A stretch of 64,000 nucleotides of DNA from a virus (IMGVR_UViG_3300034069_002177:64001-128000), one strand, 5' to 3'. Shown: positions 10,582-58,325, numbered from the stretch's first letter. Notes: a model not told the origin generated them from the letters alone. Translations and numbers: made by a program.

Positions 10582-10586
10582 TTAAT

Positions 10587-11858: not shown

Positions 11859-11869
11859 CAATGCTCGAT

Positions 11870-11899: not shown

Positions 11900-11914
11900 G
11901 TTCTATATGAACAT

Positions 11915-11989: not shown

Positions 11990-12163
11990 CTCAACTTCAT
12001 CACTACTCCGATGAGGTAGGGTTCCGATAAGCACCATGTGTGCTAAGATTGGGGCTCGCAGAACCACCCGGTTCTGTTGTGTGCTGGATTCCGTGTTGTG
12101 CGCACGACGTGGAATTCATCGGTCGAAGTCCGACGTATGTAACCGACGAAACAGGTGCTACAT

Positions 12164-12236
12164 GCCCGTATAGCTCAGTTGGTAGAGCGCCAGCATGACT
12201 CGCTGGATGTCGGGGGTTCAAATCCCTCTACGAGCA
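12164..12236 (+). tRNA. trnV: tRNA-Val(GAC)
   Basis: CCAGC-AT-GAC-TC-GCTGG; atypical T37; one acceptor mismatch. Confidence 0.85.
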
Positions 12237-12252
12237 CTGCTTCTTGACACGA

Positions 12253-12519
12253 AGCTATTCCTGAGAAATCGGGATGTTCCGCCCTGACCTTCGCATTGTG
12301 AAGTTCCTTACCTCGGTTTGGATGAACCACTGCGACCCTTGGAGCCACCAAGTCCCTACTCCGGTAGGGATGAACCACCACGACCTTCGCGTCCACAATA
12401 TCCTCGCCTCGGCTTGGATGATCCTCCCCAACCTTCAGATTCATCACTTCCTCGCTCCGGCTTGGATGAACCGCGATGACCTCTACCGTGGGTACACTTT
12501 CGTTTCGACGGGAATTATG
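12253..12519 (+). CRISPR. delocalised degenerate type I-E-like array: 6 repeats, five 20-nt spacers
   Basis: GGATG at exact 48-nt period (12272, 12320, 12368, 12416, 12464); 28-nt units with 7-bp-stem/4-nt-loop geometry, e.g. CAAG-TCCCTAC-TCCG-GTAGGGA-TGAACC; degenerate terminal repeat ~12493-12519. Confidence 0.8.
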
Positions 12520-12528
12520 GAAATGGAC

Positions 12529-12558
12529 TTGACAGAGTATGGTCTGGTACTGTAAAGT
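12529..12558 (+). promoter_or_regulatory. sigma70-type promoter
   Basis: TTGACA-18 nt-TAAAGT. Confidence 0.7.
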
Positions 12559-12626
12559 GGTAAACGTCTTGTGAGAGCAAGACTTCGGAACTTCACAACA
12601 CAATAGCGTTTAGTAAGAAAGATTTT

Positions 12627-12700
12627 GCTTCTGTAGCTCAGATGGTTAGAGCGCCGCCCTGTCACGGCGGAGGTCGCCGGTTCAAGTCCGGTCAGGGGCG
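12627..12700 (+). tRNA. trnD: tRNA-Asp(GTC)
   Basis: Cloverleaf; loop CT-GTC-AC; core identical to 1719-1792. Confidence 0.95.
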
Positions 12701-12947
12701 CTATCAAAGGAACCGCGTTAGCGGGTTGCCTGCGATACAGCAAGACACCAGATACCGTCAAATATCTGGTACCCACACTTCTACCGTCGATGCGGTAGGT
12801 TCCGTTGACACGGAAGGATCGTTTCAAGTGAAGGTCTTGTACTTTGTTGGGCGTCGTCCTCCGGGACTGGCGCAGCCGATGGGTTCGGTTCCGTGACTCA
12901 TCTCCCTTTTATGCCGAGTGGTTGCAAACGCGAGGAAACGGAAATAT

Positions 12948-13020
12948 GGGGTCTTAACTCAGTTGGTAGAGTGCCTGCTTTGCAAGCAGGATGTCAGGAG
13001 TTCGATTCTCCTAGACTCCA
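12948..13020 (+). tRNA. trnA: tRNA-Ala(TGC)
   Basis: G3-U70; loop TT-TGC-AA. Confidence 0.95.
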
Positions 13021-13160
13021 CGTTGGTAGACGAAAGTCTTACCTTGGTAGATGAACACCTACCCTGCTCCAGTAATGGACAGGCTCCGAAGCAGAGATTC
13101 GGAATCCTACGTAAGACTGCTAGCGTCGCACATAGGAATATCGAGTCAAGTGTTCAACAT

Positions 13161-13231
13161 GGATTTTAGCTCAGTTGGTAGAGCACCTGCTTTCAAGCAG
13201 AATTTCGGGAGTTCGATTCCCCCATAATCCG
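13161..13231 (+). pseudogene. degenerate Ala-derived tRNA with 6-nt anticodon loop (TTTCAA)
   Basis: D arm and CTGC/GCAG stem resemble Ala(TGC) at 12948 but G35 is missing; mismatches in T and acceptor stems. Confidence 0.55.
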
Positions 13232-13375
13232 CGAACAAGAAGCTGTTGAAGTTTAGGGATTAACTACCCGAGTGCAGATACGTGTGTGTACTGTTTATAC
13301 CCTAGTCGCCGGTTAGGATGATGACTGCTTGGTAGTTCTTGCAGTGATTGTTCATGAATACGAGCTAGGCTCTGT

Positions 13376-13446
13376 GGGGATGTAGCTTAATGGTAAAGCC
13401 TTAGTCTTCCAAACTAATGACGCGGGTTCGATTCCCGTCATCCCCT
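13376..13446 (+). tRNA. trnG: tRNA-Gly(TCC)
   Basis: Loop CT-TCC-AA; U73. Confidence 0.94.
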
Positions 13447-13709
13447 CTGTGGCATCATCGAAATTACGGTGAAGGCTTCCTAACGCCTCTGTGTGAATCG
13501 CAGTGAAAAGTTAGGACTCTGCCGGAGTAGAGTGGTTGCATAGACTAAACCGGAAACAGGGCTTGCGGACCTGGGCGTGATACGGGATTCGGCTATCACA
13601 GACCTCTTTATGAGGCATATGGATGAAAGTTCCACAGTGAAGCATTTAGGAAATTCGAAGAATCCAAACGCGTTGGATGAAATCGTATAGACTAAGTGCA
13701 TCACGACAT

Positions 13710-13781
13710 GCGGATGTGGCGCAGTGGTAGCGCATAACCTTGCCAAGGTTAGGGTCGCGAGTTCGAATCTCGTCATCCGCT
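13710..13781 (+). tRNA. trnG: tRNA-Gly(GCC)
   Basis: Loop TT-GCC-AA; U73. Confidence 0.96.
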
Positions 13782-13949
13782 CGTAAGCAGCATTTGACTG
13801 CTAGGGCTTCTAGGATATCCATTGGGTATCCTTTTAGTCGAGATCCCGTCCAACCGCAAGGTTGGCGTAAGCGGTCGTTCAAATACACCTTCTCTAACTC
13901 CGGTTGGCATCGAAAGATGCGTTCTTGGGAAGCGTGTTAAACCGGATAT

Positions 13950-14021
13950 GCGGTCATAGCCTACGGGTATGGCAACTTGGCTTCCAGCCAAGAGTTGATG
14001 GTTCAAGTCCATCTGACCGCT
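13950..14021 (+). tRNA. trnG: tRNA-Gly(TCC)
   Basis: Loop CT-TCC-AG; U73. Confidence 0.9.
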
Positions 14022-14344
14022 CAAAGCCATCCAGAAGGCGGTATAAGCGAGTAACTAACGCCGATACCATCCGATGCTGGCTCATCCTTAGAATGGAACG
14101 TGGCGCTTGTGAGACTGTAGTGGTCAAGCACGTGTTACCGGAAATTCTCAGGCTCTGATTCTCGACTAGTAATCGGGAAGCGGGTTTGCTTCACCCGCCC
14201 TAGCTGCGACGAGTAGTGGCGAAGGAATAAGCACCTCAGCAATGCGAGGCTAAGCGTTGCCACTATTGGGTCACTGTTTACTAGACAAACCCTTTAGGAT
14301 TCGGTAAGCTAGAGACTAAGAAGCTTCCTAGCTTCCGAATACAT

Positions 14345-14439
14345 GGGACTGTAGCTCAAAAGTCACCCTCAAGGTGGCGGGTAGAGCAAGGAGCGGCGCG
14401 CGTTCCAGAAGGTTATCGGTTCGATCCCGATCAGTTCCA
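14345..14439 (+). ncRNA. Ala-like tRNA with hairpin inserted in D loop (loop GG-CGC-GC)
   Basis: Acceptor GGGACTG/CAGTTCC with G3-U70 and A73; D stem GCTC/GAGC enclosing GTCACC-CTCAA-GGTGGC; T arm ATCGG-TTCGATC-CCGAT. Confidence 0.65.
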
Positions 14440-14481
14440 CGGTCTTCTAGTCGTCCTTCGGGATGGCTAGAACTCCACCAT

Positions 14482-14556
14482 GCGAAAGTAACTCAGCGGT
14501 AGAGTTCCTCGTTGCCAACGAGGTTGTCGCGGGTTCGATCCCCGTCTTTCGCTCCA
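14482..14556 (+). tRNA. trnG: tRNA-Gly(GCC)
   Basis: Loop TT-GCC-AA; CCA encoded. Confidence 0.95.
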
Positions 14557-14641
14557 AGGTAGGAATTTGTCAAACGCAGCCCGGTGCCCTGACGACATCG
14601 ATGCTGTAGGGGTTCCTGCCTGTAACTTATTTTCATGATTT

Positions 14642-14714
14642 GCCCTCGTAGCTCAGGGGATAGAGCAGGAGCCTTCTAATCTCTTGGTCGCAGGTTCGAA
14701 TCCTGCCGAGGGCA
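14642..14714 (+). tRNA. trnR: tRNA-Arg(TCT)
   Basis: Loop CT-TCT-AA. Confidence 0.93.
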
Positions 14715-14815
14715 CAACGGTCGTCAATGGGCGTACACGACCGGGTTTACTTGGCGTCCAAAACAGGCGGCTTCCTATGAGTGTATGGAGGCTGATCCTC
14801 GACTCGACACTCACT

Positions 14816-14888
14816 GCGTTTGTAGCTCAGTGGATAGAGCAGTTGACTACGGATCAACAGGTCGGGGGTTCGAATCCCTCCAGGCGCA
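14816..14888 (+). tRNA. trnR: tRNA-Arg(ACG)
   Basis: Loop CT-ACG-GA. Confidence 0.95.
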
Positions 14889-14947
14889 CAGATTTGCATG
14901 GTAGCTGTCTAGCTGCTATGCTTTTCACGAGGGTAAAACCTTGAAAT

Positions 14948-15020
14948 GCCGACTTGGCGCAATTGGTAGCGCAACTGTCTTGTAAACAGTAGGTTGCGGG
15001 TTCAAGTCCCGCAGTTGGCT
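14948..15020 (+). tRNA. trnT: tRNA-Thr(TGT)
   Basis: Loop CT-TGT-AA. Confidence 0.95.
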
Positions 15021-15036
15021 CTCCGAAGGGATAATT

Positions 15037-15399
15037 ATGTACGACTTGTCATTCTCTGAATTTGACGACGAACCTCGCGCCCTCCCCATCGATGTAGCGC
15101 GTAATCGCATCGAGCCGTTGTTCCCGAATTTGAAGTTCACAAGTGCTGGCGGGTCAGTTCCCTTCCAAGCCGAGGGCTACTACATGGGTATCGCGGACTT
15201 TTACTTTCGGTTCCGACATGACTCGGCTAGTCTCACGATTGGTCGTCCTGGTCGGCACACCCCCGAAAATGATTTCGTCATCTACAAAGATGACGTGACT
15301 GGCGAGGATTACGCGGGAACGCTCGACGATGATGAATTTGTAGCGTTGTTCACGGAACTCATGGAGCGTATGCTTGCAGAGAAACCACTTCCTCGCTAA
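15037..15399 (+). CDS. hypothetical protein (120 aa, acidic)
   Basis: RBS GAAGGGA, protein-like composition, fills gap between tRNAs. Confidence 0.8.
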   Translation: MYDLSFSEFDDEPRALPIDVARNRIEPLFPNLKFTSAGGSVPFQAEGYYMGIADFYFRFRHDSASLTIGRPGRHTPENDFVIYKDDVTGEDYAGTLDDDEFVALFTELMERMLAEKPLPR

Positions 15400-15448
15400 G
15401 AAATAGACTGGTGATGGTCAGGTCAGAAATGAAGCAGCCATCATCTTT

Positions 15449-15521
15449 GCCCTTGTAGTTCAGCGGATAGAGCGTCATCTTCCGAAGGTGAATGTCGCTG
15501 GTTCGAATCCAGTCAAGGGCA
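15449..15521 (+). tRNA. trnR: tRNA-Arg(CCG)
   Basis: Loop TT-CCG-AA. Confidence 0.92.
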
Positions 15522-15757
15522 CAAGCAACACGAAGTGGCGATGGCAGGGTAAGTTGCAACGACTGTCACGCTCCCTATGCATGGGGTTGTGTTGTGAGGT
15601 GAAGGGAAATCACCAAATTCGTACTGGTCGTTCAAGTCAGGACTGCTTGTTAAAAGTGAGATGGGGGTATCGAATCCTTCCTAGTACGCCAAACTTCTTG
15701 TAACACGACCGGGTTCAGCCCAGTCGTGTGATATAGCCAGACACCGATGGTGTTTAT

Positions 15758-15829
15758 GCCACTTTAGCTCAGGGGTAGAGCAAACGCTTCGTAAGCGTTA
15801 GGTCGTCAGTTCAAATCTGACAAGTGGCT
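15758..15829 (+). tRNA. trnT: tRNA-Thr(CGT)
   Basis: Loop TT-CGT-AA. Confidence 0.95.
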
Positions 15830-16089
15830 CGGAATCGGGAACAAGGTCTCTCGGTAACGGACAGGTACAAAACGAGAACCCAGTGCACATGGACTCGCAC
15901 AAAATCCTGTTACCGTTTCGGTGTCCGTCTTCTTACGTTTTCGGGCACCGAACATTCTTCGAGGTTCAGCACTCGACGTATTTCATCTCAGGATACGGTA
16001 CGATACCAAAGGCTGGTCGGAGGTACACCGAAGGTAATCTGTTAGTGCAGATGATCAACCATGCACAGCGCGGAGTGATTCGCGTTTGT

Positions 16090-16161
<72 letters not shown>

Positions 16162-16197
16162 CGTAAAGACTGCTACGGTAGTTATTCACGAAAATAT

Positions 16198-16273
16198 GGG
16201 TTCTTAGCTCAGTTGGTAGAGCATCACGCTGGCAGCGTGAGGGTCAGGGGTTCGAATCCCCTAGGATCCACCA
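16198..16273 (+). tRNA. trnA: tRNA-Ala(GGC)
   Basis: G3-U70; loop CT-GGC-AG; CCA encoded. Confidence 0.95.
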
Positions 16274-16302
16274 TATAGACACCTTGACGAAACGGACCAA
16301 AG

Positions 16303-16776
16303 TTGACCGAGCTAGTAATCGCTCCAATGAATGTCGAAGATATTCAGTCCGTTATCGACCATGTAACCAATGTATCCCTAGCTTCGTCGCATCTCGACCA
16401 CCCCAATATCGGTGCATGGCTTGAAGGTGAATACAATCCTGCTGATGTACTCGCAAAGCTTGATTCGAGCATCTGTCTCATTGTGAGAGATAACGAGCAC
16501 ATTGTCGGTACCGGATTCATCGATACGACAACTGGCTACATTTCGGGTGTCTATGTCTCCAATAAGGGACACGGTACTGGTCGTTTGATTGTCGATAGGT
16601 TGCTTGAAGAAGCAGCAGCAGAGGCTGGTACGAAACACTTCACTGCGAGTGTTCATCCTGACTCGAAAGCCATGCAGCACATTCTTTCAACGTCTGGTTT
16701 CACGGCAACGCATGTGGACCCTCACGTTGTTTACTATGTTGGTACCGACTTCATGATTTGGGAAAAGTCGGTATAG
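16303..16776 (+). CDS. GNAT family N-acetyltransferase
   Basis: beta4/alpha3 acetyl-CoA motif VYVSNKGHGTGRLIVDRLL; C-terminal AMQHILSTSGF. Confidence 0.8.
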   Translation: MTELVIAPMNVEDIQSVIDHVTNVSLASSHLDHPNIGAWLEGEYNPADVLAKLDSSICLIVRDNEHIVGTGFIDTTTGYISGVYVSNKGHGTGRLIVDRLLEEAAAEAGTKHFTASVHPDSKAMQHILSTSGFTATHVDPHVVYYVGTDFMIWEKSV

Positions 16777-16782
16777 CAACAC

Positions 16783-16854
16783 GCCTCGTTAGTTCAGCGG
16801 AAGAATGCCTCTTTCCTAAAGAGTTGGTCGCTGGTTCGAATCCAGTACGGGGCA
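16783..16854 (+). tRNA. trnR: tRNA-Arg(CCT)
   Basis: Loop TT-CCT-AA. Confidence 0.9.
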
Positions 16855-17209
16855 CTGGGAAAACACCAACAGATTCGATTAGTCATCGAGGAACTAAGTT
16901 GGTGAGGGTGGTCGTTCACCGTGAAAAGAACGATGTCTGGTGATGTAGACGAGGTACCTAGCCTGAATCACAAGCGGATGAGACGGTTAGCTGGTTGGTG
17001 GACGCTCGATAAGGGTGGTTTCCGTACTCGCTGATTTGTGGGGTATAGATTCCGAATACTGCGACCCATCGTGGAAGACAACAAGCGGCTTGACTGGTCG
17101 CCCAAGTGACAAGTGTGGTGGAAATCCACTAGTAATCAAGAGCGTGGTACAGGGATCATAACCCTGCCTCCGTGAAGGTTTTAAGCCGGAGCGGCTTGGT
17201 TGCGATTTA

Positions 17210-17283
17210 CGGAGTATGGGAAAATTTGGCAATCCGCGCCGTTCGGGACGGCGAGAATGAGGGTTCAAATCCCTCTACTCCGA
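17210..17283 (+). tRNA. trnP: tRNA-Pro(CGG)
   Basis: C1-G72; loop TT-CGG-GA. Confidence 0.92.
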
Positions 17284-17377
17284 CATGGGGCGAGTGAGTC
17301 CGCGAAACCTTGGTGTTGACAACACAAGTAGACGTGGGCGCGGTCGCGTGTTTTCTCGACACCCTGTATCGTCAAAT

Positions 17378-17634
17378 GCAGTAGGGTTGAGGAACAGAAA
17401 TGCGGGCAGCAATGTGCCGCTACCGTAGGTCGAGACTACGGCGCTCCACCAAACTTTTGACACAGATTGGTCAACCCCGGCGCTTTAGGGGCTGAGAACG
17501 GCTCACAGAGCCAGTGGTCGTGGGCGAAGCGTGAAGGCATCCTGGGTAAGTCCTTCCGGCAAGCTACCAACGCGAATTCTGAGGTTCATGTCTTGGAAGT
17601 GCTGGGGACGTGGGTTCGATTCCCACCGACTGCA
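17378..17634 (+). ncRNA. large structured RNA closed by a tRNA/tmRNA-like acceptor and T arm
   Basis: GCAGTAG pairs (6/7) with CGACTGC-A after GGGGAC-GTGGG-TTCGATT-CCCAC; internal hairpins such as CCGTAG/CTACGG. Confidence 0.4.
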
Positions 17635-17660
17635 CAACGTCAGCAATGCGCTGACCGTAT

Positions 17661-17734
17661 GGTGTTCGTAGCTCAATTGGCAGAGCGGCAGGTCGTGAAC
17701 CTGTTCGTTGCGGGTTCAAGTCCCGTCGTCCACC
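17661..17734 (+). tRNA. atypical tRNA-His-like (loop TC-GTG-AA)
   Basis: G-1/C73, canonical D and T arms, C33, two acceptor mismatches. Confidence 0.65.
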
Positions 17735-17766
17735 TGAAACGATACCCTTATCGTCAAAAGGAATAA

Positions 17767-17840
17767 CAGGATGTAGCGCAGTTTGGTAGCGCGCCAGTTC
17801 GGGGAACTGGAGGTCGCGGGTTCAAACCCCGCCATCCTGA
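17767..17840 (+). tRNA. trnP: tRNA-Pro(GGG), C33 variant
   Basis: C1-G72; CCAGT-TC-GGG-GA-ACTGG. Confidence 0.85.
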
Positions 17841-18016
17841 CACTTATCGACATCCGTTAACGAATGACACCGTACTGTTTTATGGTATAAACACCCCAAT
17901 AGAGGGGTGGTTGTTCGATAGCGGGTACATTCCACATAAAAATGGCTTGACAGATGAGACAATTTCATACACGGCAAAATGGTTGCTGTATCTACATCCG
18001 AAAGCTCATCCCGACC

Positions 18017-19692: not shown

Positions 19693-20190
19693 ATGACCGG
19701 TGTAATTGTACTGAATGCAAGTTATGAGCCCCTAGGCGTTGTTTCGCTCCACAAGGCGATGAAGAACATCATCCGTGGTCGTGTCGAAGTTGTACGTGCG
19801 CACGATTCTGATGTCATCCACACGTCTTCTGGTGTGCTCGCTGTGCCTATCGCTGTTCGTTTCACCAAGATGGTTCGGGTTCCTTACCGTAATGGTGAGA
19901 TGCAGCCGCACCTGAAGAAGGTTTTGATCCGTGACAACTACACGTGTGCCTACTGCGGTAAGCACGCTAAGACAGTTGACCACATCCAGCCTAAGTCCCG
20001 TGGTGGTAAGAACACGTGGATGAACCTCATTGCTGCTTGCCAGCCTTGTAACGGTAAGAAGGCGAACAAGACTCCTGAGGAAGCACACATGGTTCTTCAG
20101 TTCCAGCCGCACCCTGTCTACCAGCAGGATGTCCTGACGGCGAACATTGCCAAGACAGGCTTCAGCATGGATACTCTGTTCGACTTCTGA
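19693..20190 (+). CDS. HNH endonuclease
   Basis: RDNYTCAYCG...TVDHIQPKSRGG...NLIAACQPCNGKK; RBS AGGAGA. Confidence 0.92.
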   Translation: MTGVIVLNASYEPLGVVSLHKAMKNIIRGRVEVVRAHDSDVIHTSSGVLAVPIAVRFTKMVRVPYRNGEMQPHLKKVLIRDNYTCAYCGKHAKTVDHIQPKSRGGKNTWMNLIAACQPCNGKKANKTPEEAHMVLQFQPHPVYQQDVLTANIAKTGFSMDTLFDF

Positions 20191-20290
20191 ACGAACTAGC
20201 TACACCCTCGGGGACAACTATCTATGGGTGGTTGTCCCCGAGCCATTTGCGGAGTACGCTCCGCTTGTCAGTCAAGAGAAAGAGAAAAAG

Positions 20291-21493
20291 ATGAGTAACG
20301 AATTAGGATTCCCAATCGAGATGATTGGTACCAAGGCTCCGGTCCGAATGTGGGCTAATGAGTGGGAAGTAGAGCATGATGCGTTGAAGCAGCTACGGAA
20401 TATTGCTTCGATGCCTTGGGTTCACGGCGTCCGTGTGATGCCTGACGTGCATGTCGGCAAGGGCGCTACCGTTGGTTCGGTTATCGCTATGAAGCAAGCC
20501 GTATCTCCCAATGCTGTTGGTGTTGATATTGGCTGTGGAGTTGTAGCCGTTCGCACGAGCTTGCGCGAAGAAGATTTAGAGCGTTTGCCTCAGTTACGTG
20601 CGGCTATTGAGAACTCCATCCCTGTCGGTTTCCGTGGACATGACCGTGATGTGAATGTCCGCCAGCTTGGTCTTGAACGAGGCTGGGATAACTTCTGGGG
20701 CGACTACAAGAATTTGCACAAGGATGCCGATGCTATTGAGGGTAGAGCGCACTCTCAAATGGGTACATTAGGTGGCGGTAATCACTTCATCGAACTCTGT
20801 GTAGACGAAGCCGGTGATGTGTGGCTAACGCTGCACTCCGGTTCTCGTAACATCGGCAAGTCACTTGCGGAACGTCACATCGACATTGCGCAGAAGCTTG
20901 CTCACAATGACGGCTTGGTTGACCGAGACCTGGCGGTGTTCTTATCGGGTACGCCCGAAATGGATGCTTACCGTCACGACTTGATGTGGGCTCAGGAGTA
21001 TGCGCTACGTTCTCGCTCGATCATGATGGCGCTGTTCCGCAAGGCACTTCGTGATCACTACGGTGACAGCAAGACCGTCACCTTCGATGAAGAAATCAAT
21101 GTGCACCACAACTACGTCGCTGAGGAAATCATCGACGGCGAAGAGATGTTGGTTACCCGTAAGGGCGCTATTCGCGCAGGTCTTGGCGATGTTGCATTGA
21201 TTCCTGGTTCGATGGGTACCGGTTCGTATGTTGTTCGTGGTCTCGGAAACGATGCTTCGTTCCAGTCGGCATCTCACGGCGCTGGTCGTCGTATGAGCCG
21301 CAGCGCTGCAAAGCGGAAGTACACGGTCGAAGACTTGATTGCTCAGACAAAGGGTGTTGAGTCTCGTAAGGACCAGGGTGTTGTCGATGAGATTCCAGCG
21401 GCATACAAGGATTTGAAGCATGTCATGGATTCGCAGTCGGACTTGGTAGAAATCGTTCAGCACCTACGAACGGTTCTCTGCGTCAAGGGCTAG
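20291..21493 (+). CDS. rtcB: RtcB RNA ligase
   Basis: MPDVHVGKGATVG, VGVDIGCG, GTLGGGNHF, HSGSR, HHNY, RKGA, PGSMG, HGAGR, DEIPAAYK. Confidence 0.97.
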   Translation: MSNELGFPIEMIGTKAPVRMWANEWEVEHDALKQLRNIASMPWVHGVRVMPDVHVGKGATVGSVIAMKQAVSPNAVGVDIGCGVVAVRTSLREEDLERLPQLRAAIENSIPVGFRGHDRDVNVRQLGLERGWDNFWGDYKNLHKDADAIEGRAHSQMGTLGGGNHFIELCVDEAGDVWLTLHSGSRNIGKSLAERHIDIAQKLAHNDGLVDRDLAVFLSGTPEMDAYRHDLMWAQEYALRSRSIMMALFRKALRDHYGDSKTVTFDEEINVHHNYVAEEIIDGEEMLVTRKGAIRAGLGDVALIPGSMGTGSYVVRGLGNDASFQSASHGAGRRMSRSAAKRKYTVEDLIAQTKGVESRKDQGVVDEIPAAYKDLKHVMDSQSDLVEIVQHLRTVLCVKG

Positions 21494-50276: not shown

Positions 50277-53210
50277 ATGATGGTATCCACACACGAGAAG
50301 CACGCTCTCCGAGTTGCGCGTAAGGCAGAAGACCTGTCTTACGCCGCGCGTTCGGTTTGGGGTAAGACCCAGCGTGGTAAAGATACGACCTTCTGGATGC
50401 CTCTTTACCGGCACTTGGCTGATACTGCACTCGTATCTGCGCGCCTTTACGATGAATACCTGCCGGATGCCGCCAAGCGAGATATTGCTCTTGCTCTGAA
50501 CAGCGAAGATGATGCGCGGACACTAGCTATTTTCCTTGCTGGAATTCACGACCTCGGTAAGTCATCGCCTGTTTTCCTTGCATCAGAAGATGATTACGTC
50601 AATGAACTCAATGATGCATTCATGGGCAAAAATGGTCTTCACGTGCCACGAGGTCTTGATAGATCTCTAATTCGACATGAAGTAATCTCAGCTATTCTCA
50701 TCAAGCGCTTCCTTCTCGAAGAAGGTGTCTCTGAGGCTGTAGCTGATTCTTGCGCAATCGTAGTCGGTAGTCATCACGGCAACCCCCTCTCTCACGAGCT
50801 TCTTGCGTCTTGTATCGGTCGAGAAGACATCATCGGAACTTCTGACCCAGCCTGGCTCGCCGTTCAGCGCGAAATCTTTGACTATGCCGCTGTCATCTCC
50901 GGGGCTAACAAGAGCTTCATTAATTGGCGAGACATGGAGATGTCACGTTCAGCAGAAACCATTCTTATGGGTTTCGTTGTAGCTGCTGACTGGGGTGCCT
51001 CTCAGGGTTTTGGCTGCAATATGTCTTTGAAATCCAAGACCCTCGACATCGACGTAAAGAAAGACACCAGCCGAGCGGTGGTTGCGCTCAACGCACTGCC
51101 TATTCCATCCAAGTGGACACCCTCTGTACCGCCCAACGCAGGGAGTGAATTCTTCCATACGAGATTTGGCTTCCCACCACGACCTGTACAGAAGGCTGCG
51201 CTTGATGCTGTTCGTCCAATGACAGACAGTGGGCTAATAATCATCGAAGCCCCAATGGGTGAAGGCAAAACGGAAGCCGCGCTCGCTGTTGCTGAGGTAA
51301 TGGCTCAGCAAACTGGTGCGTCAGGAGTATTTGTTGCACTACCCACCATTGCTACCTCAGACGCCATATTCAGCCGCGCCCGAAGCTGGGTTAGCAACCT
51401 TCCCGGAAGCCGCAGTGGCATGTCGATGTATCTTTCGCATTCCCGTTCCGGTCTCAACGGTAACTTCGCTGAACTACTAGATGCGGCTCGTGAAGAAGGC
51501 GTCGATGGTGGACACGTCAATAGGTGGCTGTCACAGGGAACCAAGCTGGGTCCGCTATCGAACTTCGTAGTCGGGACTATCGACCAAGTGCTTGTTTCGG
51601 CATTGGCATCAAGGCATGTCACGTTGCGACATCTAGCGCTCGCCAACAAGGTTGTAATTCTCGATGAGGTGCATGCATATGATGCGTATATGAACGTATT
51701 CCTGGCACGAGCGTTGCAATGGTTGGGTTATTACGGCGTTCCCGTCGTGCTTCTTTCGGCTACTTTGCCGACCGATATCCGCAAGGATCTGGTGGTGGCA
51801 TATAACGACGGCTTGAATTCGCGTCGGACGATGAGTGCACCTGTCAAGGAACTTCCTCTTACTTTGGACATCACTAAGATTGCAAAGTCCAAGCAGTCAC
51901 GTAATGACATTGGCGGTATTGACCTGAAGCCGTTGACAACTATTCGGTACCCTTTGATTTCCGTTCTGGACAAGAAAGGTGTGCATGTTCATCACACCGA
52001 AGGTGCATCGAGCAAGAATCCGCTCGCTCTGAATGTGCTTCCTGGCGGTGGTAACGACGAGACGCTCGCGAAGCGTCTTTCTGACCGACTCATCCACGGC
52101 GGGTGTATCGGAATCTTCCGTAATACGGTCGCTCGTTCTCAGCAGACCTATGACGCCATGAAGGCATACTTTGCGGAGCAAGAAATTCCTGTCGAGGTTC
52201 TTCTACTCCACTCGCGATTCATCGGGCTTGATCGCGCCGTCAAAGAACAGCGGCTCAACAACTATCTCGGCAAGGAATTTGCCAAACGACCTAAGCGGCT
52301 CATTGTAGTCGGAACACAGGTGATGGAACAGTCGCTTGATATCGATTTCGATGAAAGCATTTCGGACATTGCTCCTATTGACTCGCTGTTGCAGCGCGCG
52401 GGACGAACCCATCGCCACAACATCCCCAATCGTCCGCGCGTATTCACGGAACCAAGACTTTACATCGCTGGAGTCTCTAACTGGGATGAAGAAGAAGGTG
52501 GGGTGCCTGGTGTCAACCATGCCGCAGAAGCGATTTATCCACTCAAAACACTGTACCGAGCCGTTCACGCCCTGCGCCCTTACGCCCTAGATGACGAGAA
52601 GCGACTACAACTCCCTCGTGATATTTCTGCCTTGGTACGTCGTGGTTATGGCGACCGTGTTCGTCCGCCTGAAAGCTGGAAGGACGAATGGAAGGTAGCC
52701 GAGAAAGAATGGCGCGATCTCATCAAGGATAAACGGGATAAGGCTGACAGTAACTATCTCCTTCCCGCGCCTGAGACCGACATCCTTGACTGGCAAAGCC
52801 ATATCAGCAAGGGTGTTGGAGATAGCGAATCCAAAGCACTCGCGTCTGTCCGAGACATCGATGATGAGGAAGAGATCATCTTGCTCAAGTCGAATGGAAA
52901 GGGTCAGATCCAAACTCTCGATGGAGAGTTTGCTGGTGCTGGTCTCGCAGTTGATTTCGAGAGTAAACCTAATCACGAAACTGCACTTGCTATTGCGGCA
53001 AGCATGTTGCGTCTCCGGGCAAAAGAATTTGCTGCCCTTGACGCTGAGTCGGTTCTATTCGACACCGATCTGATTGGTGAATGGAAAGCGATTCCGATTC
53101 TACGTCACAAGAAAATTCTGGTGCTGCGAGAGAACATGGTTATCAACGGCAAGGGTTTTGCTGTGCAGTACAGCCATGACCGGGGTTTGGAAATGAAGGT
53201 GGTTAAGTGA
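50277..53210 (+). CDS. cas3: CRISPR-associated helicase/nuclease Cas3
   Basis: HD domain (HLADT, IHDLGK, HEVIS, SHHG, AADW); APMGEGKTE, DEVH, SAT, QRAGR. Confidence 0.96.
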   Translation: MMVSTHEKHALRVARKAEDLSYAARSVWGKTQRGKDTTFWMPLYRHLADTALVSARLYDEYLPDAAKRDIALALNSEDDARTLAIFLAGIHDLGKSSPVFLASEDDYVNELNDAFMGKNGLHVPRGLDRSLIRHEVISAILIKRFLLEEGVSEAVADSCAIVVGSHHGNPLSHELLASCIGREDIIGTSDPAWLAVQREIFDYAAVISGANKSFINWRDMEMSRSAETILMGFVVAADWGASQGFGCNMSLKSKTLDIDVKKDTSRAVVALNALPIPSKWTPSVPPNAGSEFFHTRFGFPPRPVQKAALDAVRPMTDSGLIIIEAPMGEGKTEAALAVAEVMAQQTGASGVFVALPTIATSDAIFSRARSWVSNLPGSRSGMSMYLSHSRSGLNGNFAELLDAAREEGVDGGHVNRWLSQGTKLGPLSNFVVGTIDQVLVSALASRHVTLRHLALANKVVILDEVHAYDAYMNVFLARALQWLGYYGVPVVLLSATLPTDIRKDLVVAYNDGLNSRRTMSAPVKELPLTLDITKIAKSKQSRNDIGGIDLKPLTTIRYPLISVLDKKGVHVHHTEGASSKNPLALNVLPGGGNDETLAKRLSDRLIHGGCIGIFRNTVARSQQTYDAMKAYFAEQEIPVEVLLLHSRFIGLDRAVKEQRLNNYLGKEFAKRPKRLIVVGTQVMEQSLDIDFDESISDIAPIDSLLQRAGRTHRHNIPNRPRVFTEPRLYIAGVSNWDEEEGGVPGVNHAAEAIYPLKTLYRAVHALRPYALDDEKRLQLPRDISALVRRGYGDRVRPPESWKDEWKVAEKEWRDLIKDKRDKADSNYLLPAPETDILDWQSHISKGVGDSESKALASVRDIDDEEEIILLKSNGKGQIQTLDGEFAGAGLAVDFESKPNHETALAIAASMLRLRAKEFAALDAESVLFDTDLIGEWKAIPILRHKKILVLRENMVINGKGFAVQYSHDRGLEMKVVK

Positions 53211-55261
53211 CATCGTTCAACCTTGTTGATGAGCCTTGGATTCCAGTCAATCTGATTAGCGGTGAGGGTGTTGACGTTTCACTAAGAGATCTCTTTGCCC
53301 GCTCTCGTGATATTCGCTCTATCGAGTGTGACAACCCGATGCAGACCGCAGCGGTGGTGAGACTGGTACTTGCTGTAATGTACCGGGCTCTTACGCCTTT
53401 GTTTCTGGCGCAGAAGAATCACGCTAAAAACGCCGATGTCACTCTCTGGAAAATGCTGTGGGACGACGAGACGGGCACACTTGCCAACACAATCGACAGC
53501 TATCTCGAAACATGGAAGAATCGCTTCGATCTATTCGATGCCAAGCGCCCTTTCTACCAAATCGCTGACTTGGAATACAGCAGCGCCGATGAAAGCAATC
53601 GAGGCGAAATCAAGCGCAGCCTTGGAAAGATGATGCCTGACGGTGACATCATCAGCGTTTTCAAGAACAGCGATTTTGCTGCTAAGGTGAGTTATGCAGA
53701 AGCGGCGCGTATTCTCATTGGCTACCATTCGTGGTCAACTCTCGCTCCACTCAGTCCTGTGGTGGGTATTTACCCGGATGACGAGCTAGCTATTTCACGA
53801 CTGTATCCCAAAGGTCATCGCGGTTGGTGTTCTTCAATCGGGATCACCCTCATGGTAGGTCGCAATTTCTATGAGACGGCGATGCTCAACTTCGTCCCCA
53901 GCCAACTCAATTTCAAAGATGTACCTTTCTGGGAAGAGGCTAAGGCTCGAAAAGTGCCGATCCTCTATGAAATGCCAGATGGTCTCGCCAAGCCCATCCT
54001 CAAATCTCGCAATGCCAAACCTGTTGGTCAGGTACAGCTTTTCGTTTGGTTCGCTAAGAGCGTTCGACTAATTCCCGAAAACGGTAAAGTCGTTGCGGCT
54101 ATTTCATCCGAGCACGATTCACTGAGTTCCCGAAGCTCCAATGTACACATGGCTCGACACCATGAAACTCAAACTGCTTGGCGCGAAACGGAGAAAGGTG
54201 AGATGGCGGCGTATCACTTTGTCAGCGACTCGGTTTGGCAGAACATTCCCGCAGTGCTTCCCAAGACTCGTGATGGATTCCTTGCCCCACTCAACGTTAC
54301 ATGGTCGGCAAAGGTCGTCAACTTACTCGGTATTCGGCTACCCGCACGAATTCGCATTATCGGAGCGAGTACCGATGATCGTGCGCAAACATTTCGAGGC
54401 GTTATTGACAAGAGCGTTACCATCTCGTCTTTGTCCAAACTGGATAATCCCGTTGTCACAGCCCGTATTGCAGATACTGCCGAAACGTTGACGAAAATGG
54501 TTAGGACTTACTACTACGGCTTTGCACGCGATGTCCTCTCTACCAAGTACGGGGAGGTGTCCAGCATCCTTTTAGATGCCCTTATGTCGCCAGCTAACGT
54601 TGTCTTGGACAAGTCCTTCGTCTCTTTGTTCCGGCTCGCTACAGACCCGAATGAGCCGAACGTTGATACTGTTATCGATGGCTTGGTCGAACACTTGATC
54701 GAGCTATCTCAGGAAGTAGCCAATGATTCAAACGGAACTGACTTGCTGGGAAAATGGCACCACATCAACGGAGAAAACAAGCTTCTTTCGATTGCTGCCT
54801 CACGCGCAAGATTGTTACGGGGAATTCAGCCCGAACGCAAGAAATCGTTTGGAAAACTGACCGAAGATGCTGGGTTTGTAAGGTGGGCGATCAATAAGAA
54901 CCTCGCCAGCAAAAAGCTGAGCCCCGAAGAGTCCGACTTGGATGAGTTCGTGTTGGGGTTCTGGTCTGGGCGGAAAAATCTACCCAGCGGTGCTCCCGTC
55001 CATATCGTCGAGAAGACTCCTTATGACTCTTTTTCGGTATTGCGCAAGAGTGATGGCGCAGCCTTCGATGAGAGAGTTTCTGACCTTTTCGATGCCAAAG
55101 ATGATGCAACCATCAAGGAGTCCTTACGTCGTCTGGCGGGTGTGGCTAATTCGCAGGGTTATCCGATGGATTTCGGAACTCTCGCGGCTATTGGGAAGTC
55201 GATTCACAATCCCGAACTACGTCTAGAAATCGCGCAAGATATAGCAGACCGCCGTAAGTGA
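53207..55261 (+). CDS. cas8e: type I-E Cas8e (Cse1/CasA) with C-terminal Cas11 (Cse2)-like extension
   Basis: FNLVDEPWIPV...SLRDLF, RFDLFDAKRPFYQ; final ~140 aa ending ERVSDLFDAKDD..IKESLRRLAG....QGYPMDFGTLA; no separate cse2 ORF. Confidence 0.88.
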   Translation: MTSFNLVDEPWIPVNLISGEGVDVSLRDLFARSRDIRSIECDNPMQTAAVVRLVLAVMYRALTPLFLAQKNHAKNADVTLWKMLWDDETGTLANTIDSYLETWKNRFDLFDAKRPFYQIADLEYSSADESNRGEIKRSLGKMMPDGDIISVFKNSDFAAKVSYAEAARILIGYHSWSTLAPLSPVVGIYPDDELAISRLYPKGHRGWCSSIGITLMVGRNFYETAMLNFVPSQLNFKDVPFWEEAKARKVPILYEMPDGLAKPILKSRNAKPVGQVQLFVWFAKSVRLIPENGKVVAAISSEHDSLSSRSSNVHMARHHETQTAWRETEKGEMAAYHFVSDSVWQNIPAVLPKTRDGFLAPLNVTWSAKVVNLLGIRLPARIRIIGASTDDRAQTFRGVIDKSVTISSLSKLDNPVVTARIADTAETLTKMVRTYYYGFARDVLSTKYGEVSSILLDALMSPANVVLDKSFVSLFRLATDPNEPNVDTVIDGLVEHLIELSQEVANDSNGTDLLGKWHHINGENKLLSIAASRARLLRGIQPERKKSFGKLTEDAGFVRWAINKNLASKKLSPEESDLDEFVLGFWSGRKNLPSGAPVHIVEKTPYDSFSVLRKSDGAAFDERVSDLFDAKDDATIKESLRRLAGVANSQGYPMDFGTLAAIGKSIHNPELRLEIAQDIADRRK

Positions 55262-55310
55262 TTTGACACGACGACTACACTCAGATACCCTTCCGTCAGG
55301 AGAACCATCA

Positions 55311-56381
55311 ATGACAACTTTCATCAACATCCACGCCATTCAAAGCCTTCCTCCATCGTCGCTTAACCGTGATGACAGCGGAGTTCCTAAGAAGGCACTG
55401 TTCGGCGGTACAGAACGCGTTCGGGTTTCTTCTCAGTCATGGAAGTTCGCTATTCGAAAGTTCTTTTCTGATAACTACGACTCCAGCTATATTGGGTGTC
55501 GGACGACTCAGCTTCCTGTGGAGTTCGAAAAGGCTCTACGGTCAATCCGACCCGAAGCCGATGATGCACTGGTGAAAAAGCTGACGAAGACAGTTTTGGG
55601 AGTAGCCGAGAAAACCGAAGAAGACGGGGCGGGATTCGAGCCTGGTTCGGTTGCGGGTTCTAAGATGATTGTCTTCTATAGCCCCGCGCAGTTAGAGGCG
55701 CTCGTTACCATCGCCATCGAGGTGGTTGACGGAAAACGAAAAGGTGTCACTGTTTCTGAGATCAAAGAAGCATTGGTTGGCAAGAACACTGTCGATATCG
55801 CCCTGTTTGGGAGAATGATGACGGCTCAGGCGGAACTAAGTGTTGATGCTGCGGCAAATGTTGCTCACGTCATCGGAGTTGATAAATATGAGTCGCAACG
55901 TGACTCCTTTGTGGGTTTAGACGACAACCTCGGTAAGGCAAAAATCCTGGGCTCCATTGACTTCGTATCTTCGGTCGTCTACCGATACGCATGTATCGAT
56001 GCTGATTCACTCACCAAGAACCTTGATGGTGACAAGACGTTCTCGGCGGAGGCGGCTGGTGCATTTATCAATGCATTCATTCGGTCCATGCCATCGGGTA
56101 AGCAGTCTAGCTTCGCGGCTCATACCCTCCCCAGTTTCGTTCTCGTAACACTTTCAGATAATCAGCCACTCTCGCTTGCTAGTGCCTTCACTCGGGTAAT
56201 TAGCGGCGACGACATTGAAAACGACGCTATTGACGCCCTGGTGGAGAATGCGATGATGATCTCCGATAACTATGGGGAACCGATTGCTGCATTCACGTTG
56301 CATGATGGAACGCATGATATTCCTTTTGCGAAGAAGGTTTCGCTGCCCGACCTAGTTGACTCTGTGAAGAAAGCTTACTAA
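55311..56381 (+). CDS. cas7: type I-E Cas7 (CasC/Cse4)
   Basis: INIHAIQSLPPSSLNRDDSGVPK...RVRVSSQSWK, DIALFGRM, DAAANVAH, SSVVYRY, PSGKQSSFAAH. Confidence 0.96.
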   Translation: MTTFINIHAIQSLPPSSLNRDDSGVPKKALFGGTERVRVSSQSWKFAIRKFFSDNYDSSYIGCRTTQLPVEFEKALRSIRPEADDALVKKLTKTVLGVAEKTEEDGAGFEPGSVAGSKMIVFYSPAQLEALVTIAIEVVDGKRKGVTVSEIKEALVGKNTVDIALFGRMMTAQAELSVDAAANVAHVIGVDKYESQRDSFVGLDDNLGKAKILGSIDFVSSVVYRYACIDADSLTKNLDGDKTFSAEAAGAFINAFIRSMPSGKQSSFAAHTLPSFVLVTLSDNQPLSLASAFTRVISGDDIENDAIDALVENAMMISDNYGEPIAAFTLHDGTHDIPFAKKVSLPDLVDSVKKAY

Positions 56382-56384
56382 GTC

Positions 56385-57128
56385 ATGTCATCCGTCGTTC
56401 TTGTCCTTTCTGGTGTACTCCAATCATGGGGTACTACCACTATCGGTCATGCCCGAGCAACAAACAGCTACCCAACCAAGAGCGCCATCGTTGGTCTTGT
56501 TGCAAATGCGCTCGGTAGAGAACGCACTGATACCATTTCGGATTTGGCGAAACTTTCGTTCGGAGTTCGTATCGATATGGCGGGCGTAGTGCAACGTGAT
56601 TATCACACGGTCAGCATTATCACTCAGCCGACTAAAGGTGACAGAGTGAATCGCATCACTGAACGCTATTACTTAGCCGATGCTGTTTTCGTGGTCGTGC
56701 TTAGTGGTACTGATAATGAGCTAATCAAGCAAATCGGAGAAGCATTACAGCGCCCCGCACGACCTTTGTTCCTGGGACGCAAGTCATGCCCTCCTATCAG
56801 ACCAACTTTTCATAGCTACTCAGATCTTGGCGTTCAAGAAACACTGGCTGCTGTTGCTTGGCAGGCTGATATTGCTACGCAGGAATCATTCATCGGTTCT
56901 CATCTCGAATTAGATGTTTACCGAGACCCTACCGATGACATCGAGGGTTTTGACTCTGATGTCATCAATGACCAGCCGAAGAGTTTTGATCCTCATGCTC
57001 GTAGGTATGCATCACGAGGCGTTTACCGCGATGTCGTAAAGATCGAGTTTCCTATTCAGCAGTCAAGAACGACTCCTATTTCTGGTTTCTTTGCGCTGGC
57101 ACAAAAGGTTGCGGAGGCAGCATCATGA
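56385..57128 (+). CDS. cas5: type I-E Cas5 (CasD)
   Basis: LSGVLQSWG...PTKSAIVGLVANALG, RDYHTV, RYYLADAVF, LFLGRKSCPP. Confidence 0.96.
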   Translation: MSSVVLVLSGVLQSWGTTTIGHARATNSYPTKSAIVGLVANALGRERTDTISDLAKLSFGVRIDMAGVVQRDYHTVSIITQPTKGDRVNRITERYYLADAVFVVVLSGTDNELIKQIGEALQRPARPLFLGRKSCPPIRPTFHSYSDLGVQETLAAVAWQADIATQESFIGSHLELDVYRDPTDDIEGFDSDVINDQPKSFDPHARRYASRGVYRDVVKIEFPIQQSRTTPISGFFALAQKVAEAAS

Positions 57129-57760
57129 CGTATCTCACCGTCGTTCCTCTGAATGCTTACAGGGCGTCCACTAAGAAGATGCTGTCTTCTCGTCAAGTTG
57201 CTCACGCAACAGTGATGCAGTCATTCGCGCCCAATCAAAATCTCAATGACGCCGATTCAAGAGTTCTTTGGTCGCTTGATGTTTCGGGTCGAGACGTGCA
57301 ACTGACCATTCTGAGTCCAGAGCGGGCTTCTGTAGAGCACATTGTGGAGACCTGCGGATGGACAGCAGCGGGAGATTCTAGCTTCCAGCAAGTTGAATAC
57401 ACCCCGTTGGTTTCGAGTGTTGCAACAGGAAGTCAGTATTCATTTTCTGTCACAGTCAATCCTGTTATTTCGGTCACAGGAAGTTCCAAACGCATAGCGG
57501 TTTCCGAGAAAGACGTAGCTGCATGGGTTGCTTCTAAATTCGGGCGGGAAGGTATGAGAATTATCACCTCAGAAGTAATCTCGTATCGTATTGAATCCTT
57601 CAAACGAGGAAACGGCAAGGTCACTCTGGCGTTGGCTACCGTCACTGGGACATTCCGGGTTGAGGATGCATCAGCCACGCAAAAAGCTCTCGTTGCTGGG
57701 ATTGGTCGTGCCAAAGGATATGGCTGTGGTCTCATCTCACTCAACGAGCAATTAGTCTGA
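57125..57760 (+). CDS. cas6e: type I-E Cas6e (CasE/Cse3)
   Basis: HATVMQSF, RVLW, VNPV, C-terminal GIGRAKGYGCGLISL. Confidence 0.95.
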   Translation: MTYLTVVPLNAYRASTKKMLSSRQVAHATVMQSFAPNQNLNDADSRVLWSLDVSGRDVQLTILSPERASVEHIVETCGWTAAGDSSFQQVEYTPLVSSVATGSQYSFSVTVNPVISVTGSSKRIAVSEKDVAAWVASKFGREGMRIITSEVISYRIESFKRGNGKVTLALATVTGTFRVEDASATQKALVAGIGRAKGYGCGLISLNEQLV

Positions 57761-57765
57761 TTGGG

Positions 57766-57838
57766 GTGCTCCCAGTGATGGGATGTTCCTCCGTGATACC
57801 GACGTGACAAGAATTCCCCGGCACGCCGGGGTTGCACT
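57766..57838 (+). CRISPR. single-spacer mini-array with atypical repeats and a 21-nt spacer
   Basis: GTGC-TCCCA-GTGA-TGGGA-TGTTCC (24 nt), spacer 57790-57810, GAAT-TCCCCGG-CACG-CCGGGGT-TGCACT (28 nt), 5 nt after cas6e stop. Confidence 0.8.
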
Positions 57839-57857
57839 CCAATCAGATTCACTCAGT

Positions 57858-57886
57858 TTGACTTTCGGGCATAATTGAACTACCGT
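57858..57886 (+). promoter_or_regulatory. sigma70-type promoter
   Basis: TTGACT-17 nt-TACCGT upstream of 57921. Confidence 0.55.
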
Positions 57887-57920
57887 AGATGTTGTAGTAA
57901 GAACCAGAAAGGACTACAAC

Positions 57921-58325
57921 ATGGCTGTCACTCTAGATTCAATGCCGAACGAGGTCAATGTCAAGGACGCACCTCCCGCTCCTAATCTCGTCAAGGTCGC
58001 AACTCTCCGAGCGGTCACCACTCGCCGTCGTCTGGATCGTTTCTGGCAGATGATTCGCGATGAGGCTCCCACCAGCTATCCCGTTGGCACCTACAGCATC
58101 CCTGGTGAAGAGGATCTGAAGCTCGTGGTGGTCGATGTCATGAAGCCCGCATCAAGCGCAGAGCTTACCGATGACGACACAGCAGTCTTCCCGAAATACC
58201 GTTTCGGTGCAAAGGTCGTCTCTGCCGATTCGATTGCTACCGATCTCGGTGAAATCGGAGTTGCCACTCCTTACGACTACGTAGCTCCCAAGCCCAAGAA
58301 CACTCCCGGTGACGGATTCGTTTGA
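57921..58325 (+). CDS. hypothetical protein (paralog of 41483-41905)
   Basis: RBS GAAAGGA; RFWQMIRDE...GTY. Confidence 0.85.
   Translation: MAVTLDSMPNEVNVKDAPPAPNLVKVATLRAVTTRRRLDRFWQMIRDEAPTSYPVGTYSIPGEEDLKLVVVDVMKPASSAELTDDDTAVFPKYRFGAKVVSADSIATDLGEIGVATPYDYVAPKPKNTPGDGFV

Follow-up and report, generated by a model that had tools for sequence, protein, structure and literature searches.

A conserved one-spacer cassette beside a compact type I-E cas operon on a giant mobile element carries a 20-nt guide matching bacterial tRNA-Glu genes

Canonical type I-E CRISPR-Cas systems, as known from Escherichia coli and Thermobifida fusca, combine ~29-nt near-identical repeats with 32-33-nt spacers and an AAG PAM. 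The locus that we describe here shares with them the usual gene order (cas3, cas8e, cas7e, cas5e, cas6e), a repeat stem-loop with a handle like AUAAACCG (here AUGWWCCN), and an unread sixth guide base, which is visible here in the match statistics. It differs from them in that cas1 and cas2 were not found, Cas11 is fused to Cas8e, degenerate repeats flank guides of 20 nt at a period of 48 nt, the predicted PAM is AAC, and the guides, which are fixed and conserved among relatives, appear to be aimed at cellular tRNA genes, all of this on a giant mobile element. Shorter guides have been engineered: for E. coli Cascades with shortened spacers, two reports (Kuznedelov et al. 2016, PMC5159557; Songailiene et al. 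2019, PMC6859484) likewise describe a shorter guide, fewer Cas7 subunits, and interference above ~20 nt. Those complexes are, however, laboratory constructs, whereas the short format reported here is natural, conserved, and joined to a Cas8e-Cas11 fusion.

Germline-fixed guides are known from CRISPR-associated transposons (especially types V-K and I-F3; PMC11406308), whose homing crRNAs likewise have diverged repeats and a truncated spacer, lie apart from the adaptive array, and address a conserved chromosomal target that is often a tRNA gene. These transposons have usually lost Cas3, rely on TniQ and a TnsB-type DDE transposase, and direct their guide beside the insertion site, whereas here Cas3 is intact, neither of the other two was found, and the guide match lies inside the tRNA gene. 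Because TniQ and a DDE transposase (rve domain) were absent from the 202.7-kb source record in a domain search, and no tyrosine integrase was recognized in it, the element is not a CRISPR-associated transposon. The CRISPR systems of huge phages (Al-Shayeb et al. 2020, PMC7162821) likewise have a compact array and no adaptation genes, and that study reports spacers that target host sigma-70 or GlyRS, the phage having a copy of its own in the case of sigma-70; in its CRISPR section, we found no tRNA-gene targets, type I-E mini-Cascade, 20-nt guides, or universal T-loop PAM. The type I-F system of Vibrio phage ICP1, used offensively against the PLE satellite, is likewise a phage-borne type I system with a Cas3-type nuclease, but has adaptation genes, ordinary spacers, and an island as its target (reviewed in PMC11656645). 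One spacer and a degenerate repeat beside cas genes are likewise seen in regulatory mini-arrays and cr-like RNAs (Shmakov et al. 2023, bioRxiv 10.1101/2023.03.03.530964), but these recognize a partial, PAM-flanked self-target, whereas here no self-target in the 202.7-kb record rises above the shuffled level and a foreign gene is matched at all read positions. Already known are adaptation-less phage CRISPR systems directed against host translation or transcription genes (PMC7162821), truncated fixed guides to tRNA genes (PMC11406308), and regulatory mini-arrays. Neither a natural type I-E system that combines 20-nt guides with a Cas8e-Cas11 fusion nor Cas3-linked guides against tRNA genes with the T-loop as PAM turned up in the literature searched.

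The stretch of DNA analyzed here (64,000 nt, hereafter the window) spans positions 64001-128000 of a record of 202.7 kb, listed in IMG/VR among the viruses, cut as a 'provirus', and rated 96% complete by CheckV. The element has a G+C content of 51%, and 64 tRNA genes plus a tmRNA lie at window positions 899-17841. Its NrdE is ~80% identical to those of many Microbacteriaceae (among them Salinibacterium, Frondihabitans, Mycetocola, Microbacterium, Agrococcus, Leifsonia, and Plantibacter), which, together with the presence of the element's DNA in plant and food metagenomes, makes this family the likely host on grounds of protein similarity and habitat; against this assignment stands the G+C content of Microbacteriaceae genomes, which is much higher than 51%. 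The element's NrdE is also listed on a 654-kb contig, and the contigs of relatives measure 229, 231, 495, and 805 kb. The Pfam families Phage_capsid, TerL_ATPase, and Terminase_6N had no match in the 202.7-kb record, and a PHROGs search with 40 ORFs (most of the largest) of this 'provirus' cut found no virion gene. Since the record is such a cut and the NrdE recurs on a 654-kb contig, virion genes may sit beyond it. Because capsid, terminase, and integrase were not recognized in the record, the lytic lifestyle that would make an attack on the host chromosome sensible is only putative. When two large ORFs were compared with phages by tblastn, one of them gave at most a match to a PilB-like ATPase and there was nothing else, and megablast against GenBank phages returned no relatives. 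The record encodes a bacterial-style replisome (a DnaE-like polymerase, clamp, clamp loader, and helicases), as well as a gyrase-like topoisomerase II, SbcC, an FtsK/SpoIIIE-like protein, and a PilB-like ATPase. The element may be a megaphage, a concatemer, or a giant plasmid.

The type I-E operon occupies window positions 50277-57760, with the following genes:

50277-53210, plus strand: cas3 (HD nuclease and SF2 helicase), 977 aa; Pfam Cas3_HD (1.2e-38), Cas3-like_C_2, and Cas3_C; NCBIfam cas3_core
53207-55261, plus strand: cas8e (Cse1) with a C-terminal Cas11/Cse2 domain, 684 aa; Pfam CRISPR_Cse1 over residues 5-451 (1.1e-60); Cse1 matches in the PDB
55263-56381, plus strand: cas7e; Pfam Cas_CT1975 (2e-86); NCBIfam casC_Cse4 (2.3e-72)
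56385-57128, plus strand: cas5e; Pfam Cas_Cas5d (8.8e-39); NCBIfam casD_Cas5e (5.9e-42)
57125-57760, plus strand: cas6e; Pfam CRISPR_assoc (9.5e-39); NCBIfam casE_Cse3 (8.2e-16)

The HD residues of Cas3 and its helicase motifs I (APMGEGKTEAA) and II (DEVHAYD) align with those of the solved Cas3 4q2c; the motifs are intact and, judged by them, the enzyme looks active. According to the structural model, Cas11 (Cse2) is a domain fused to the C-terminus of Cas8e, without a gene of its own: In an AlphaFold model of Cas8e residues 440-684 (pLDDT 79.7), the part from ~551 to 684 superposed on T. fusca CasB 4h79 with a Z score of 11.0 and an rmsd of 3.2 Å over 131 aligned residues, and the ten best structural matches were all Cse2/Cas11, with unrelated ones scoring 5.0 or less. 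The fusion is common to seven relatives (664-693 aa). For E. coli, one of the above reports (PMC5159557) states that Cascades with shortened spacers hold fewer Cas7 subunits and keep interference if the spacer exceeds 20 nt; a guide of 20 nt is thus at the lower edge there, which counts against the reading favored below. By analogy, the Cascade encoded here probably has four Cas7; four Cas7 and one Cas11, instead of six and two, would fit because a 20-nt guide equals 32 minus 12 nt, and the fusion to Cas8e would supply the single Cas11. Cas1 was not found in the 202.7-kb record, where Cas2 was represented by one sub-threshold match inside a 440-aa ORF, and in relatives cas1 and cas2 were not found within 10 kb of the cas loci.

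Directly 3' of the cas6e stop codon, we find a one-spacer cassette made of a repeat (R1), a 20-nt spacer, and a different repeat (R2). The flanks of the guide are type I-E-like, with a degenerate repeat that ends in GGGATGTTCCT and is followed by GAATTCCCCGGCACGCCGGGGTT. Its parts are:

57755-57769, plus strand: 5' arm of the outer clamp stem, overlapping the cas6e stop codon and pairing with 57834-57848
57763-57790, plus strand: degenerate repeat R1, with a hairpin at 57770-57783 (TCCCAGTGATGGGA) and a predicted 8-nt 5' handle ATGTTCCT at 57783-57790
57791-57810, plus strand: 20-nt guide CCGTGATACCGACGTGACAA, antisense to tRNA-Glu positions 52 to 32
57811-57839, plus strand: repeat R2 (GAATTCCCCGGCACGCCGGGGTTGCACTC), with a hairpin at 57816-57831; predicted 21-nt 3' handle at 57811-57831
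57834-57848, plus strand: 3' arm of the outer clamp stem, pairing with 57755-57769

A preliminary description of this DNA had placed the spacer at 57790-57810; its 5' boundary shifts by one, since base 57790 is part of the 8-nt handle, and the spacer is 57791-57810 (20 nt). The Cas6e cut site was placed as in E. coli, and its position here is accordingly a prediction. The R1 element GGGATGTTCC is found again in the first repeat of a second array and is kept in relatives, while R2 is single copy in the 202.7-kb record, with relatives keeping its hairpin despite base changes. The cassette is closed by a 15-bp outer stem (MFE fold z = -3.5), and both repeat hairpins and the outer stem are preserved, with differing sequences, in all eight relatives folded. 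Across the window cassette and the loci L121, L124, L125, L128, L190, L192, and L198, the outer stem measures 10-15 bp and varies in sequence; in L125, L128, L190, and L198, the 5' handle GUUCCU(C) pairs also with (G)AGGAA 3' of the second repeat. The outer clamp and the handle pairing may be a processing or stability device. The guide itself can fold a small internal hairpin (G5-C18, U4-A19, and G3-C20), possibly another reason for the bases at positions 18 and 20. Canonical CRISPR arrays and further repeat copies were not found in the 202.7-kb record, an Rfam search of the cas region returned no family, and a scan for the handle motif gave the two mini-arrays and chance sites only (for example, at window 20018). 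Past the cassette (window 57860-57920), all relatives share a conserved TTGACTTT box, likely the -35 element in the promoter of the next gene (57921-58325), which has no assigned function.

The reverse complement of the guide (TTGTCACGTCGGTATCACGG) is unique in the window. Compared with the commonest bacterial tRNA-Glu (CTTTCACGGCGGTAACACGG followed by GTTC), the guide mismatches at positions 6, 12, 18, and 20, exactly as first described. All three positions that a type I-E Cascade would flip out fall among these four mismatches (Fisher p = 0.0035), and compared with tRNA-Glu genes that have T32 the mismatches are confined to 6, 12, and 18; the mismatch of position 20 to the commonest form counts against the reading that we favor below. 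We searched one genome per species (185,579 species) with the pattern AAC plus CCGTGNTACCGNCGTGANA, in which guide positions 6, 12, and 18 are masked, position 20 is free, and AAC is the flank given by G53-T54-T55. The pattern occurred in at least 120 genomes, against ~4.3 expected by chance. Among the 123 matches listed, ARAGORN recognized 113 as tRNA-Glu (94 UUC and 19 CUC), all in one register, and 78 of the 123 read CTTTCACGGCGGTAACACGG and then GTTC; a match in a Geotalea coding sequence is due to chance. The masked guide matched 24 of 61 sampled Microbacteriaceae genomes versus 18 of 401 phylum-wide, and the reversed pattern had no match in either set.

These data support the original proposal that a Cascade guide is directed at tRNA-Glu genes with its differences at unread positions, a proposal also borne out by the guide variants of relatives and by the guides of the second array. 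With positions 6, 12, and 18 masked, the Glu genes of the candidate hosts show no read-position mismatch in those 24 Microbacteriaceae genomes. The target had been compared with a tRNA-Glu consensus as in Bacillus, but the relevant targets are of the Microbacteriaceae type (variable loop TAGC or CAGC) and not of a specifically Bacillus one. The idea that one guide could cover both Glu(UUC) and Glu(CUC) is true of a minority of genomes, the CUC gene being matched as well in ~7 of 61; in four other genomes, examined singly, where it was seen, the Glu(CUC) gene has a seed mismatch at position 2 or 4. The GTC triplet invites an 'Asp' reading, which is ruled out by the tRNA-Glu-type 4-nt variable loop and by position 18 being unread. 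Anticodon-like triplets in the guides are misleading because, with a 5-nt variable loop, position 18 is the middle anticodon base; despite such triplets, the Glu identity of the cas6e-adjacent guide is right.

Relatives of the locus allowed the guide to be compared with its variants. Homologues of Cas8e (664-693 aa, with 44-62% identity) are encoded within syntenic operons running from cas3 to cas6e, the contigs being up to 229 and 495 kb long, and a metagenome pattern scan gave further cassette copies, bringing the copies from distinct relatives to eight overall; 8 of the 14 metagenome pattern matches were chance and were set aside. A search of the viral_contigs collection by Cas7 and by the DNA pattern found no relatives, a match in a recA-like gene being due to chance. 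One further locus, L123, has the same cas operon with the cassette missing, leaving only ~70 nt from cas6e to the next gene (L123:7992-8063). The guide is conserved in the eight relatives and differs only at positions 8 (A/G), 10 (C/T), 15 (T to A, once), 18 (C/T), 19 (A to G, once), and 20. In five non-matching Microbacteriaceae genomes that we examined, tRNA-Glu(UUC) is off at one read position, with the protospacer carrying G at 8 or T at 10. The guide haplotypes of the relatives at positions 7-11 (TACCG, TGCCG, and TACTG) are exactly the three tRNA-Glu(UUC) haplotypes of the family, and a pattern with R at 8 and Y at 10 matched 51 of the 61 Microbacteriaceae genomes. No other single finding argues as strongly for a guide in use as this co-variation with the target. 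Three observations on the relatives count against the reading favored below. First, L123 lacks the cassette. Second, the guide of L125 has a mismatch at read position 15. Third, A6 and A12 (window 57796 and 57802) are invariant in eight of eight relatives while never matching the target, which is at odds with unread positions that drift freely. In the element itself, each of the six guides carries A at 6 and a purine at 12. Both adenines could be kept by a base preference of the Cas7 pocket or by selection against annealing to mature tRNA.

The other five guides of the element lie in a second mini-array within the tRNA cluster:

12253-12519, plus strand: second mini-array with a 48-nt period, consisting of 28-nt degenerate repeats ending in ATGWWCCN and five 20-nt guides

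We compared all six guides with the 45 distinct tRNA genes (46 Rfam matches) of one Microbacterium genome. For five of the six, the best match occurred in one register, with guide position 1 opposite tRNA position 52 and GTTC next:

cas6e-adjacent guide, tRNA-Glu(UUC): mismatches at 6, 12, 18, and 20
array guide 1, tRNA-Ala(CGC): mismatches at 10, 11, 12, and 18
array guide 2, tRNA-Pro(GGG): mismatches at 10, 12, 15, 18, and 20
array guide 4, tRNA-Arg(ACG): mismatches at 12, 16, 18, and 20
array guide 5, tRNA-Val(CAC): mismatches at 1, 12, 18, and 20

Array guide 3 (12378-12397, CCACGACCTTCGCGTCCACA) had no convincing target in this Microbacterium genome (6 mismatches) or in five actinobacterial genomes. 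For four of the five matched guides, 0-1 of 300 shuffled versions did equally well; for the tRNA-Pro guide, 10 of 300 did. Taken together, the five matched guides agree with their targets at 75 of 85 read positions versus 4 of 15 flipped ones (Fisher p = 2.2e-6), the latter being the random level. Put the other way, mismatches occupy 11 of the 15 positions at 6, 12, and 18 and 10 of the 85 elsewhere, and no other 6-nt phase shows the effect. These match statistics point to a guide that would be read five bases at a time, each sixth base being flipped out, and AAC (from G53-T54-T55) fits all matched guides as the predicted PAM. All specified positions of the Val guide (read positions 1-19 plus AAC) are matched in 27 of the 61 Microbacteriaceae genomes.

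The element's own tRNA-Glu genes depart strongly from the guide:

7733-7807, plus strand: own tRNA-Glu(UUC), with one extra base in the variable loop; 11 in-register mismatches to the guide, many of which fall in the seed
7868-7942, plus strand: own tRNA-Glu(CUC); 15 mismatches to the guide
9425-9500, plus strand: own second tRNA-Glu(UUC); 12 mismatches to the guide

All three have a variable loop one base longer than both Microbacterium tRNA-Glu genes and than the 113 pattern-recovered tRNA-Glu genes, the latter being a set selected by the guide match itself. The extra base shifts the register and thereby produces the 11-15 mismatches. The absence of base 47 has been reported as a GluRS identity feature in E. 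coli, and given this feature the charging of the element's longer-loop tRNA-Glu deserves attention. The nearest thing to a self-target is the element's own tRNA-Val UAC (window 9974-10047), which the Val guide matches at positions 1-7 with AAC beside them and from which it differs at 8, 14, 18, 19, and 20.

From these comparisons of sequence, we consider it rather probable that the cassette encodes a germline guide by which a compact Cascade-Cas3 of type I-E is directed to the DNA of host tRNA genes, which Cas3 would then attack. The cassette would be the single germline-encoded guide of a one-spacer mini-array, transcribed together with the cas operon. Cas6e would cut at the bases of the two unequal hairpins and release a ~49-nt crRNA (8-nt handle AUGUUCCU, 20-nt guide, and 21-nt hairpin), and this crRNA would load a compact Cascade made up of Cas5, Cas6e, the Cas8e-Cas11 fusion, and probably four Cas7 subunits. 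Its target would be the host gene for tRNA-Glu(UUC), recognized as double-stranded DNA: The guide would pair with positions 52 to 32 of the sense strand, the AAC PAM on the opposite strand would come from the invariant G53-T54-T55, and bases 6, 12, and 18 would be flipped out and unread. Cas3, once recruited, would nick and shred the host chromosome from the tRNA-Glu site; tRNA-Ala, Pro, Arg, and Val sites would be attacked too by way of the second-array guides, and the element's own recoded tRNA set would be spared. Recognition of double-stranded DNA is favored because every matched guide keeps the same register beside G53-T54-T55, and degradation by a cas3 that is intact and always adjacent. 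A bolder form of this reading, which we offer as tentative and hold to be on the doubtful side, extends it to a whole clade of giant elements infecting Microbacteriaceae: These would pair Cas3 with a mini-Cascade that naturally has four Cas7, aim at five or more tRNA genes of the host, for all of which the invariant T-loop (G53-T54-T55) would be the PAM, and so destroy the host chromosome, while their own tRNAs would be immune (tRNA-Glu through its extra variable-loop base) and A6 and A12 would be kept against annealing to the abundant mature tRNA.

The same guide and the same DNA target could also serve stable binding, with Cascade acting as a roadblock that silences tRNA-Glu and the other targeted tRNA genes or stalls replication, and so shifts translation to the element's tRNAs; we regard this as unlikely, if the most serious of the alternatives. 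It draws on the observation that all matched guides pair with the coding (non-template) strand of the tRNA gene, on reports that short or partly matched guides bind without cleavage in several systems (bioRxiv 10.1101/2023.03.03.530964), and on the borderline status of 20 nt for interference in E. coli (PMC5159557). The lytic hallmark genes not found in the record are compatible with a resident lifestyle, and huge phages are reported to target host sigma-70 and GlyRS genes, once with a nuclease-dead effector (PMC7162821). What speaks for cleavage instead is that cas3 adjoins the Cascade genes in every relative locus that extends that far and that the catalytic motifs of the window copy are intact; mature tRNAs, moreover, are long-lived, so that shutting off their genes would act slowly.

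Should Cascade-Cas3 cut DNA as we propose, its main targets might be rival mobile elements with a host-like tRNA-Glu, either competing phages with host-type tRNA genes or integrative elements in whose attachment sites the 3' part of a tRNA gene is copied, in a competition between elements. An attachment site running from the anticodon loop onward would include both protospacer and PAM. Intact host tRNA genes match equally well, however, so the host chromosome would be hit anyway, and the matches in the collections searched, although not by a dedicated search, included no such target; we give this alternative a low probability. Lower still, and in our view very improbable, is an RNA target, in which the crRNA, free or within Cascade, would anneal to tRNA-Glu of the host or to the precursor of this tRNA, thereby sequestering or marking it, the element's own tRNAs being spared. 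The guide is complementary to the tRNA itself, a Cascade-bound RNA would be expected to give the same read/unread pattern, and the conserved, non-pairing A6 and A12 could tune RNA-RNA pairing. Yet all matched guides end at position 52 with G53-T54-T55 in the place of a PAM, and reading a PAM is a trait of double-stranded DNA recognition; type I Cascades are not known as RNA-targeting effectors, tRNA positions 32-52 are buried in the folded and modified tRNA, and the intact Cas3 would be left without a role. An autoregulatory mini-array (CreR/CreA-like), a decaying array relic, or a chance resemblance is scarcely credible: A one-spacer array with a degenerate repeat beside cas genes is the usual anatomy of cr-like RNAs (bioRxiv 10.1101/2023.03.03.530964), but the best self-site in the 202.7-kb record has 4 read-position mismatches, no better than the 3-4 of shuffled guides, the cassette is kept in eight relatives whose Cas8e is only 44-62% identical, and chance is excluded by the match statistics (at least 120 genomes versus 4.3 expected; periodicity p = 2.2e-6).

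If the preferred reading, DNA attack by a compact Cascade-Cas3, is true, the locus would provide a natural type I-E effector that is compact, uses 20-nt guides, and has its small subunit fused, which could serve as a small Cascade scaffold, and evidence that the length of Cascade is set by the crRNA. Its guides would be inherited rather than acquired, and their evolution could be read directly against that of the target, since the guide variants track the host tRNA-Glu variants. Host takeover would consist of an attack on host tRNA genes together with an immune replacement set, which would help explain the near-complete tRNA repertoires of huge phages; the three features are otherwise found separately or in engineered form in the literature searched. 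A near-universal T-loop as PAM would let a few fixed guides serve many hosts, and the read/unread pattern would be a natural readout, from sequence only, of the 6-nt periodicity of Cascade.

Several further genes of the element concern tRNA. The tRNA cluster is closely followed by an RtcB tRNA ligase, and another part of the record encodes a CCA-adding enzyme, the encoded CCA being missing from most of the element's tRNA genes. A nicotinamide phosphoribosyltransferase is encoded as well (coordinates of the set: window 20147-21493, L131:8389-10065, and L131:12709-14253), and the three make up a tRNA repair and maturation kit. The cluster also contains odd members recognized by ARAGORN, at window 13161-13232 and 8172-8247, namely one tRNA whose anticodon has just two bases (tc) and one tRNA-His whose anticodon is ATG.
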